Of a stretch of 64,000 bases of DNA, positions 31,945-34,875 are shown one piece after another (position 1 is the first letter of the stretch; each line of letters begins with the position of its first letter). Below the pieces are notes generated by a model that saw only the letters and a program-made list of their open reading frames with translations, was not told where the DNA came from and searched no databases. Source of the DNA: Parcubacteria group bacterium. Its GTDB lineage: Bacteria; Patescibacteriota; Minisyncoccia; Phycocordibacterales; CSBR16-119. Made by a program: the position numbers and the translations under genes. The DNA lies in assembly GCA_943356745.1 (NCBI GenBank), contig CALRFT010000002.1, positions 7,124 through 71,123 of the forward strand, read 5' to 3'.

Positions 31945-34875
31945 TTACAAAACGATACTTATGAGTTTATTTGGAACAAAGATAATTTTCTTTGGCTCAC
32001 CGGTTATATGTCTTGCGATTGATCCGTTTTCTTGTACCTTCTGCCAAACATCATCCTGAGATGCACCAAACGAAACTGTGAGACTTCCTTTTATTTTACC
32101 ATTAATTTGAACAGCGATATTCACTTCATCTTGGGTCATTTTTGATTCATCAAATTCAGGCCAAACACTCTTGTGAATTGACGATTGTTGCCCAATAAAA
32201 TCATTCCAAAGCTCTTCTGTAATATGTGGTGCGAAAGGCGCAAGAATTTTTACAAAATCAACAAAAGACTGCTCTGTCATTCCACCTTCTTTTTCCACTA
32301 AGTTTACAAAAGTCATCATAGCAGCAACGGCGGTATTAAACTTAAATGCTGGGATATCTAAAGTTACTTTTTTGATAAGTTTATGAAGTTCTCGAGTTAG
32401 GATTTCTTTTTCTTCATCTACAAGATTTTCTGAAATACGAACAACTCGTTCCACAAAACGCCGTGTCCCAACAAGACCATCTGTGTTCCATGCAATAGCA
32501 TCATCAAATGGACCCATAAATGCTTCGTACAAACGAAATGCATCTGCACCAAAACGTTCCACCATATCATCAGGATTGATAACATTTCCCCATCGTTTTG
32601 ACATTTTTCGTCCATCTTCTGCCAAGATAAGTCCTGGCGCATGAAGTTCAGCAAATGGTTCTTCTGTATTCACTACTCCAATATCAAACAAAAACTTATG
32701 CCAAAATCGCGCATAAATAAGATGCCGAGTTGCATGCTCCATTCCACCCACATACACATCTACTGGTTGCCAGTATTGTTCAAGATTTCTATCTACCAAC
32801 ACTTCAGAATTGTTTGGATCAATATATCGCAAGTAATACCAACATGACCCTGCCCACTGTGGCATGGTATTTGTTTCTCGTCGTCCTTCAATAATTTCTT
32901 CACCATTTGGTGATTTTCCTGCCACAACAAACTCTCCCAGAGAGTTGATATATCCTCGGACATTCACCCACTCTGAAATATCAGCGAGTGGAGATTCTCC
33001 ACTATCACTTGGTTCATAGTTTTCTACTTCTGGAAGTTTGAGTGGAAGATCACTTTCTGGAATTGAATATACTTTTCCTCCAGCGTGAACAAGCGGGATC
33101 GGTTCTCCCCAATATCTCTGACGAGAAAATACCCAGTCACGAAGTTTGTAGGTTGTTTTCATCTTTCCTCCAACAAATTCTGTGATTTTTGCTTTTGCTT
33201 CTTCGGAAGTAAGTCCTTTAAAATTCTGAGAATCGATTAAAACACCACTTTCAACAAAAGGCTTTTTATCATTTTTAATTCTATCAAGCCAAAAAGGTAG
33301 TTCTACGTTTGTAATATTTTCTGGAATGAATTGCTTTGAATCCATCCAGACAATATCAAACAAATCTTTTTCAGATGAAGAAACTTCTTCTTGTTCATCA
33401 TTAATTAATTCGAAATAAAGTCCATGAGAGTAGGCAATACGGTTTTGTTGTTTATGATCTGCTGAATATAATGACTGGATTGGACTTCCAAGATATTTTT
33501 TAAATTCAATATTTTTATATCCTGTTTCCTCAAGAACTTCTCTTTTCGCAGCAGCTATTAAGTCTTCACCTTCATCTATTCCACCAAGTACTATTGTTTT
33601 CCAGTTGTGATTTTTCCAAGCAAGAGTGAGATATGAATCATTTTTAGGATTATACACAACTGCATGTATATTATTACGTTCAACAACAGGCCAATTTTCT
33701 TTATGAGAATTTTTGTGATCTATTATTGAAGGAATTACCACATCTCGTATCTCAAGATTATATTTCTTCGCAAACTCAAAATCTCGTTCATCATGAGCTG
33801 GCACCGCCATCACAGCACCTGTTCCGTAATCGGCCAAAACATAGTCTGCGATCCAAACTGGAACCTCTTCATTGTTTGCTGGATTTACTGCAAAAACACC
33901 CTGAAGCTCTACTCCAGTTTTTTCTCCTTTTTGTCTGTCGAGTGGAGATTTCTTTTTTGTTTCTTCGATATAATTCTTAACCTCGTCCCAGTTTTGAATT
34001 GAATCTTTCAAATCAAAAACAAGCTTACTTTCTGGAGCAAGTACAACATATGTCACACCAAAAAGTGTATCAGGTCGTGTGGTAAATACAGAAATAAAAT
34101 ATGGAGACGAATGGTCTTTTGAAAACGGTTGGGCTTGGGTCTGGGTTTTCAAAAGACTATTCGTTGTAATCTGAAAAGTTATTTCCGCACCTTCTGACTT
34201 TCCAATCCAGTTTCTTTGACTCATTTTTACAGAGTCAGGCCACTTATCGAGTTTGTCCAAATCAGCAAGCATTCGCTCTGCATAGTCAGTAATACGAATA
34301 ACCCACTGACGAAGCGGTTTCTTTTCTACCTCACTTCCACATCGTTCACACTTTCCATCTTCCAAATCTTCATTTGCAAGACCAGTTTTACATGACGGAC
34401 ACCAATTGATTGGTTCATGTGATTCAAATGCGAGACCTTTTTTGAACATTTGCAAAAATGCCCACTGTGTCCATTTGTAATATGCAGGGTCAGTTGTTTT
34501 TAATTCTCGTGACCAGTCATAGTCAAGACCAATAATTGAAAGTTGTTCTTTAAATGTTGCGACATTTTGATCTACTGCAATACTTGGGTGCATTTTGTTT
34601 TTAATTGCAAACTGCTCTGCTGGAAGTCCAAAAGCATCCCATCCCATTGGATGAAGCACATTGAAACCTTGCATTCGATACATTCGAGAAAGAATATCTG
34701 TCGCAATATATCCTTTTGGATGACCAACATGAAGCCCAGCTCCTGATGGATATGGAAACATATCCAAAATGTATTTTTTAGGAAGAGAAGAAGAAGAGTT
34801 TGCCTTATACACCCCTTGTTCGTTCCAAAAATCCTGCCATTTCTTTTCGATGGCTTTATGGTCATACTTTTTCAT
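31945..34875 (-). CDS. leuS: Leucyl-tRNA synthetase carrying an inserted NUDIX-hydrolase-like domain (~aa 385-540)
   Basis: HVGHPKGY (HIGH), [12 protein letters not shown] (CP1 editing domain), KMSKR (KMSKS). Nudix box [23 protein letters not shown] at 33517-33585 between the CP1 and leucyl-specific regions. Confidence 0.9.
   Translation of the reverse strand: [976 protein letters not shown]

Follow-up and report, generated by a model that had tools for sequence, protein, structure and literature searches.

A Nudix hydrolase module nested in the CP1 editing domain of patescibacterial leucyl-tRNA synthetases and its cassette-like behaviour

What a Nudix hydrolase domain does inside an aminoacyl-tRNA synthetase is the question raised by the leuS gene of a Parcubacteria group bacterium (contig CALRFT010000002.1, positions 7,124 to 71,123; the window in the following means this whole stretch of 64,000 nucleotides, in which positions are counted). 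The gene is a single uninterrupted open reading frame on the minus strand (31945..34875), as are all its parts described below, and encodes a bacterial-type leucyl-tRNA synthetase (LeuRS) of 976 aa, in which an earlier note had recognised a Nudix insertion. This was borne out, as the whole protein scores 951.6 bits with TIGR00396 (leuS_bact), against an equivalog cut-off of 548.4, and Pfam finds in it the class I catalytic domain, the editing domain PF13603 (195 bits), the anticodon-binding domain and, in addition, NUDIX (PF00293) at aa 401-518 (33322..33675; E 6.4e-12, 46.1 bits against a gathering score of 21.1). Our tentative answer, to which we give a probability of roughly 0.38, is that this is an editing-competent LeuRS with a tethered Nudix hydrolase that would clear nucleoside-polyphosphate by-products of the synthetase, and that the hydrolase belongs to a cassette family linked to synthetases.

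In regard to the position of the module, residues 1-380 of the query align to residues 1-362 of the Thermus thermophilus LeuRS (Tt; 1h3n) and residues 538-753 to Tt 375-580, with about 157 aa standing in place of a 12-aa loop. The module itself (aa 381-537, 33265..33735, from IPSIIDHKN to WLDRIKNDK) is preceded by a stretch of the CP1 editing domain at aa 221-380 (33736..34215), where profile positions 1-150 of PF13603 match aa 221-390, and followed by a second stretch at aa 538-567 (33175..33264), which opens with an 18-residue segment of CP1. Once aa 381-537 are excised in silico, the PF13603 match becomes unbroken and covers positions 1-183 of 185, which places the insert within the editing domain at about profile position 150. 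Judged from these alignments, the module is nested in a surface loop of CP1 and not C-terminal to it, which corrects the earlier placement after the end of CP1 and ahead of a leucyl-specific region. The 14-residue stretch that had been taken for the latter is the last part of CP1, while the true leucine-specific domain (about Tt 581-634) is absent, query residues 753/755 joining Tt 580/635. T. thermophilus and E. coli LeuRS have this domain, which is not universal, and its absence is no bar to membership among the LeuRS.

In other respects the protein is collinear over its full length with bacterial LeuRS of the T. thermophilus 1h3n and E. coli 4aq7 type (E 1e-190) and shares with them the HIGH and KMSKS motifs, the ZN1 cysteines, a CP1 with the T-rich motif and the editing Asp, the anticodon-binding domain and the C-terminal domain. 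It differs from them in the 157-aa Nudix module that replaces the 12-aa CP1 loop, in the missing leucine-specific domain and in a disordered 16-aa loop early in CP1. The class I signature is represented by HVGH at the synthetic site (aa 49-52, 34720..34731; H49 and G51 invariant) and by KMSKR (aa 757-761, 32593..32607; K757, M758, S759, K760 and R761 conserved), and the editing signature by the T-rich motif TTRPDT (aa 265-270, 34066-34083), invariant across the family alignment, and by AHDERD (aa 360-365, 33781-33798) with the invariant D365. Both the synthetic and the editing site of the enzyme thus look intact from their sequence motifs. As a separate observation, the C-terminal part of about 80 aa (31945-32200) shows 51-62% nucleotide identity to the related locus L094, while the rest of the gene shows 72-97%; this drop is a sign of further mosaicism of leuS, to which an alignment effect may contribute.

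A join of unrelated sequences produced during assembly or annotation had to be considered, since the module has a lower GC content than the remainder of leuS, and this at each of the three codon positions (GC 0.304 against 0.388, GC at third positions, GC3, 0.159 against 0.266; GC of the whole window 0.365). Such an artefact was rejected, and its probability is negligible: the reading frame is unbroken, a 976-aa protein with 99% identity (P0007) is encoded on independent contigs, the AlphaFold2 model of the full-length protein (alignment of 83 sequences) is confident, with a predicted local distance difference test score (pLDDT) of 89, a predicted template modelling score (pTM) of 0.80 and values of 91-96 in the Nudix region, and hundreds of independent assemblies show the same architecture. 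Comparison of LeuRS sequences, which the earlier note had proposed as a check on the spread of the insert, found PF00293 in 114 of the 120 best homologues, 113 of them at the site seen in the window and distributed over several lineages of Patescibacteria. The hosts named among these 120 are Paceibacterota, Parcubacteria, Taylorbacteria and the "Patescibacteria group", and the proteins are annotated solely as leucine--tRNA ligase. A profile search with the module returned 183 clusters (50% identity) at E <=1e-30 and 647 at E <=1e-10; the best 150 cluster representatives comprise 110 LeuRS, 27 free-standing proteins of 154-207 aa and 13 that are mostly LeuRS fragments. Likewise, in a search with one genome per species, 34 of the 38 family-level matches were embedded in LeuRS, with host labels of Saccharibacteria, Berkelbacteria, Moraniibacteriota, Adlerbacteria, Taylorbacteria and Paceibacterota, and with a few metagenome-assembled genomes labelled Erysipelotrichaceae, Bacilli or Gammaproteobacteria. 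A Nudix-bearing LeuRS is the rule in Patescibacteria and not an oddity, and the earlier description of the architecture as unusual is right when it is set against model organisms and wrong within this group.

The canonical Nudix box that had been reported within 33256-33723 is there: this interval translates to aa 385-540, and the 23-residue box lies at aa 431-453 (33517..33585) and follows the superfamily consensus GX5EX7REUXEEXGU. G431, G432, E446, E449, E450 and G452 are conserved in at least 90% of 83 aligned LeuRS, and among the 113 modules at the same site, the full box is found in 107 and the Glu triad in 112. About 20 residues past the box, a family-specific HKxxNR motif (HKQQNR, aa 474-479, 33439..33456) is conserved as well (K in 111, N in all 113 and R in 107), and its residues are candidate contacts to substrate phosphates. 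R400, K475, N478, R479 and W510 are nearly invariant besides the box. The excised segment alone matches PF00293 with E 2.4e-13 and 50.7 bits, and an AlphaFold2 prediction for the isolated module, made from an alignment of 40 sequences, reaches a pLDDT of 94 and a pTM of 0.87, with a predicted Nudix alpha/beta/alpha sandwich that structural matches corroborate; a structure prediction was among the checks proposed in the earlier note. The ratio of nonsynonymous to synonymous substitution rates (dN/dS) was calculated against the 86% identical protein P0008 of locus L094; at 0.074, it is lower in the module than in the LeuRS core, which has 0.127. The retained box and triad, together with the low dN/dS, indicate that the insert is not decaying, which disfavours the degenerate structural insert that had been offered as one explanation; sequence and model together suggest a complete, independently folding Nudix pyrophosphohydrolase that is probably catalytically active.

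No hallmark of a selfish or defensive element was recognised in the insert: a Pfam scan found NUDIX alone, with no Hint/intein or homing-endonuclease domain, and a check of its borders for target-site duplications and inverted repeats found just short repeats of the size expected by chance. Phage origin was rejected because the matches in BFVD reflect the generic Nudix fold (template modelling score about 0.6) and include no specific viral relatives, and a defence system because the PADLOC anti-phage models gave zero matches for the module and for two free-standing relatives, P0003 and P0278.

A hidden Markov model (HMM) of the family, built from the modules at the site of the window (site C), detects the family at three LeuRS sites. 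Among the 120 best homologues, 113 modules occupy site C, 34 lie at site A, between the zinc-binding region and the QRNWIG strand, often as tandem pairs, and four lie at site B, at the very start of CP1; three modules are present in 13 LeuRS and two in 10. Modules from all sites form one identity cluster, which also holds the free-standing proteins and an insert in a prolyl-tRNA synthetase (ProRS) described below. A variant box, GGIEKGQTAE.AA.AEI.EETGY (Glu7 to Gln, Arg15 to Ala or Met), dominates the second copies at site A, of which 4 of 14 are intact, and is found as well at site B, in some free-standing proteins and in the ProRS insert. In tandem arrays a variant-box copy is paired with a canonical one, and the substitutions suggest that the variant subtype is a catalytically altered or inactive paralogue. 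This subtype also speaks for a non-catalytic role of the family, in which LeuRS would be modulated through binding of a nucleotide or alarmone to the domain, or the domain would replace the leucine-specific domain in tRNA handling. Non-catalytic Nudix folds are known from NrtR, CFIm25 and mL46, and the LeuRS of the window does lack the leucine-specific domain. However, the complete catalytic box of the module, retained in nearly all copies at site C, and the purifying selection described above speak against this, and we consider a purely structural or sensing role quite unlikely.

Furthermore, how similar two modules are does not follow how similar their LeuRS cores are. Between the window and P0009, P0014 and P0017, the cores are 84%, 79% and 77% identical and the modules just 19%, 22% and 19%, whereas the corresponding values are 86% and 95% for P0008 and 63% for both parts for P0022. 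Relative to L094, the module is the most similar part of the gene, with a nucleotide identity of 93% against 82%, within a high-identity block that spans about aa 339-540; the synonymous divergence (dS) of 0.34 in the module block against 0.80 elsewhere is suggestive in the same direction, with the low GC3 possibly inflating the contrast. The gene order of the window (peptidoglycan-binding (PG-binding)/CAP proteins, LeuS, MurJ, LepA) is common to relatives with and without the module. P0010, whose short contig shows just LeuS-MurJ, has no Nudix and a LeuRS core 91% identical to that of the window, and P0011 has its module at site B and a short unrelated linker at site C. The possibility that the short linkers of the Nudix-less P0010 and P0012 are decayed remnants of a Nudix domain was rejected, as their local alignments to the module are no better than those of shuffled sequences (z 0.4 and 0.2). 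Taken together, the uncoupled identities, the synteny, the low dS and the AT-richness point to gain, loss, relocation and replacement by recombination; to judge from these comparisons, the module behaves as a cassette that can enter or leave the synthetase gene, multiply in it, be exchanged and change its site there.

Related to this, the LeuRS of the window holds at site B a 16-aa mini-insert (aa 241-256, 34108..34155), recognised by alignment to close relatives and shared only with P0009. It is of low complexity and is the only part of the full-length model with pLDDT below 50. The loop, at a position occupied by whole domains in relatives, could be either a scar or a landing pad.

Members of the family that stand outside LeuRS loops are informative about the partner of the module. 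Five free-standing members were examined (P0003, P0142, P0278, P0281 and P0285), of which P0003 and P0142 count as one lineage, giving four lineages. P0003 (L001, 8001-8492) is encoded 579 bp upstream of, and on the same strand as, a Nudix-less leuS (9071-11494 or 9023-11494), and P0142, a relative with shared synteny, 2 bp upstream of, and likewise on the same strand as, a leuS whose product has an internal Nudix as well. P0278 (L089, 7001-7513) lies about 300 bp upstream of, and on the same strand as, a gene for a 705-aa protein (7813-9930), which NCBIfam assigns to valyl-tRNA synthetase (ValRS; valS), so that its candidate identity as a CP1-less LeuRS was dropped; a second, unrelated Nudix gene is divergently adjacent at that locus. 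In addition, P0266 (643 aa) is a class II ProRS with a module of the family between its anticodon-binding and C-terminal domains, which scores 129.5 bits with the family HMM and has a degenerate box that is one residue shorter; the enzyme is of the type without the INS editing domain. The repeated fusions, at several sites and to a second synthetase that is unrelated to LeuRS, and the conserved adjacency of genes together argue for a functional link to synthetases. These are the classical signs of such a link, here to aminoacyl-tRNA synthetases in general and not to leucine, and they suggest that the module is a member of a dedicated Nudix family tied to aminoacyl-tRNA synthetases in Patescibacteria. 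In an Acidimicrobiia metagenome-assembled genome (L073), a Nudix gene (6001-6237, plus strand) is divergent to leuS (2946-5753, minus strand), with 30% identity over about 100 aa; this single case hints at Nudix-leuS adjacency beyond the candidate phyla radiation (CPR).

The same associations could be read in terms of proofreading, with the module hydrolysing misactivated aminoacyl-adenylates released by the synthetase before transfer. Every synthetase involved has an editing problem, namely LeuRS with the module in CP1, ValRS with the adjacent gene and ProRS without INS, and the LeuRS beside P0003 has a degenerate T-rich motif (DSVPQT for TTRPDT, with AHDERD kept), by which its post-transfer editing may be impaired. 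On the other hand, the editing site of the LeuRS in the window is intact and leaves nothing to compensate for, and aminoacyl-adenylates are acyl-phosphate anhydrides and not diphosphates. No Nudix enzyme is known to cleave them, a reaction carried out by HIT-family enzymes, and a pre-transfer proofreading module appears very unlikely.

Comparison with characterised Nudix hydrolases places the module near enzymes of polyphosphate chains, yet in none of their families. It is 14-21% identical to RppH/NudH, to Ndx1 of T. thermophilus (an Ap6A hydrolase), to Rv2985 of Mycobacterium tuberculosis, to Ap4A hydrolases of the lupin and NUDT2 type and to DIPP/Ddp1, and differs from them in motifs of its own (IPxxIDxxNPP...V.R at the N-terminus and HKxxNR) and in being nested in, or adjacent to, synthetases. 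Its scores remain well below the curated cut-offs for NudB (22.9 bits against 103), NudE (22.7 against 169) and ADP-ribose pyrophosphatase (TIGR00052, YffH/AdpP, and NudF; 20.1 against 79.55), and the MutT 8-oxo-dGTPase model TIGR00586 gave no match for the module at E <=1. The Pro that reportedly marks ADP-ribose pyrophosphatases at +16 past the box is at +12 in the module. As all curated cut-offs were missed, the module represents a distinct Nudix family, which may act like the ApnA/RppH type and cannot be filed there. The closest structural match, 2azw, is a free-standing, uncharacterised MutT/Nudix protein of Enterococcus faecalis with 17% identity, and allows no functional transfer. The separate NUDIX gene of the window that the earlier note had listed is present (10007-10537, minus strand, 176 aa, PF00293 66 bits) and resembles YfcD/isopentenyl-diphosphate isomerase (IDI) in sub-threshold NCBIfam matches; as a paralogue or donor of the insert it was rejected, being YfcD/IDI-like and without BLASTP similarity to it.

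RppH models are nevertheless the top NCBIfam matches, and P0278 aligns to nearly the whole profile (E 1.7e-8, 34.5 bits), which raises the possibility of an RppH-like RNA pyrophosphohydrolase or decapping domain acting on 5'-triphosphates, or on Np4- or NAD-type caps, of tRNA precursors or other synthetase-bound RNAs. Such a role would be in keeping with the addition of Np4 caps by synthetases and their removal by RppH (PMC7705103). The scores, however, are far below the cut-offs of the PRK00714 models (28 bits for the module against 116, and P0278 against 118). Moreover, the 5' ends of mature tRNAs are monophosphates left by RNase P, and in LeuRS-tRNA structures CP1 touches the 3' end of the tRNA and not the 5' end. 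An RNA-directed function is accordingly unlikely in our view.

Clearance of synthetase by-products, the reading that we prefer, could proceed as follows. Tethered beside the adenylate-forming site, the module would meet dinucleoside polyphosphates (Ap4A, Ap3A) or p4A, which arise from ATP or other nucleotides in a reaction with the aminoacyl-adenylate on the enzyme. It would hydrolyse them to AMP and ATP, thereby recycling adenine nucleotide and limiting the build-up of alarmones and Np4 caps in an organism with a small genome. By-products of the ApnN type are favoured because LeuRS, ValRS and ProRS have ATP-dependent adenylate formation in common, and by analogy with known hydrolases Ap4A-type dinucleoside polyphosphates are our best guess for the substrate. 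Ap4A and related ApnN arise in the cell chiefly through synthetases, which can also cap RNA with Np4, and RppH/NudH, MutT1 and NUDT2 are established asymmetric Ap4A hydrolases (PMC7705103). The family profile matches the lupin Ap4A hydrolase with E 7.9e-8, and of its characterised neighbours in structure, the closest being RppH, Ap6A/ApnA hydrolases and DIPPs, nearly all act on polyphosphate chains, which favours, and does not prove, a substrate of this kind; the conserved basic residues are suggestive of the same. A Tyr about 17 residues past the box is said to have been named by Dunn et al. in 1999 as a marker of ApnA hydrolases. At +17 and +18 the family consensus reads Y and F, conserved aromatic residues that would fit such substrates, and the module of the window has L-Y-S; the marker is not specific.

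Several points weigh against this proposal. It is notoriously difficult to tell from its sequence which substrate a Nudix enzyme will accept, the module fails every characterised NCBIfam equivalog, RppH being the best, and its top structural match is a protein of no assigned function. LeuRS is also not known to be among the leading producers of Ap4A (reportedly Goerlich, 1982). P0281 and P0285, two of the five free-standing members, are not beside any synthetase. Nudix-less LeuRS are found at the syntenic locus (P0012, P0015 and P0020), and no adjacent free-standing copy was found in the very close syntenic relatives that lack the module; LeuRS can therefore function without it, in some genomes at least. 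Finally, other domains, house-cleaning hydrolases among them, are inserted in frame in the same loops of CPR LeuRS and fit a generic permissive scaffold as well as they fit a specific coupling. At site B these are Ser_hydrolase (alpha/beta), HAD_2, Ham1/ITPase or DUF559 (an endonuclease-like fold), and a HAD domain is also inserted between the SRQR and KMSKS motifs. The hosts are P0019 and P0029 (Ser-hydrolase), P0021 and P0031 (HAD) and P0050 (Ham1/ITPase), with P0099 also among them; the longest proteins have 1558 aa, and as many as three Nudix modules occur beside another domain.

The main rival follows from these insertions and from the syntenic relatives that manage without the module: the module would be a generic house-cleaning enzyme of the MutT, NudI or NudB kind, acting on nucleoside triphosphates or on oxidised or non-canonical nucleotides, and the LeuRS loops an expression scaffold with no mechanistic coupling. 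Yet the repeated association with synthetases, at three LeuRS sites, in ProRS and through leuS and valS adjacency, would not be expected by chance, nor does such a scaffold account for LeuRS making up 110 of the 150 top representatives, and the MutT and NudI equivalog cut-offs are not reached. We regard uncoupled house-cleaning as possible and on balance doubtful. Equally tentative is the broadest form of our own proposal, in which a dedicated Nudix family would be a modular clean-up partner of CPR synthetases, acting in cis on ApnN and Np4 caps or on misactivated aminoacyl-adenylates, and would have spread as an in-frame cassette by recombination between permissive loops.

A partnership between a synthetase and a hydrolase has precedents, as that of LysRS-made Ap4A with NUDT2 and HINT1 is established (PMC7705103). 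There, NUDT2 and HINT1 act in trans on the products of LysRS, whereas here the Nudix partner is nested in the editing domain itself, sometimes in two or three copies. An IleRS with a GNAT domain (NCBIfam NF040702) is likewise a synthetase with an accessory catalytic domain. The literature, as far as it was covered, which was incompletely, gave no account of an aminoacyl-tRNA synthetase with a Nudix domain, and an earlier mention may exist elsewhere; PMC9775027, considered as a prior description, concerns Dus2. The finding unites two things of a familiar sort, a synthetase with an accessory domain and a Nudix hydrolase; its distribution is wide and its evolution cassette-like.

Elsewhere in the window, a LOOT RNA (Rfam RF03000) is found at 15041-15169 on the plus strand (84.1 bits, gathering score 46.4), together with four tRNA genes (Glu, Arg, Phe and Ala).

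A Nudix module in LeuRS is apparently the normal state across a large part of the bacterial tree, namely the Patescibacteria including the cultivable Saccharibacteria, and automatic annotation labels these publicly available sequences just as leucine--tRNA ligase. The covalent pairing of a synthetase with a hydrolase offers an experimental handle on whether the Ap4A-type nucleotides made by synthetases are signals or waste that needs local clearance. Likewise, with its three sites, up to three copies and swapping that is uncoupled from the host, the cassette is a tractable case of how domains enter essential proteins. If the module is indeed a clean-up partner, it would represent an unrecognised layer of quality and by-product control in synthetases, and a rare instance of domain-level mobility inside an essential gene.

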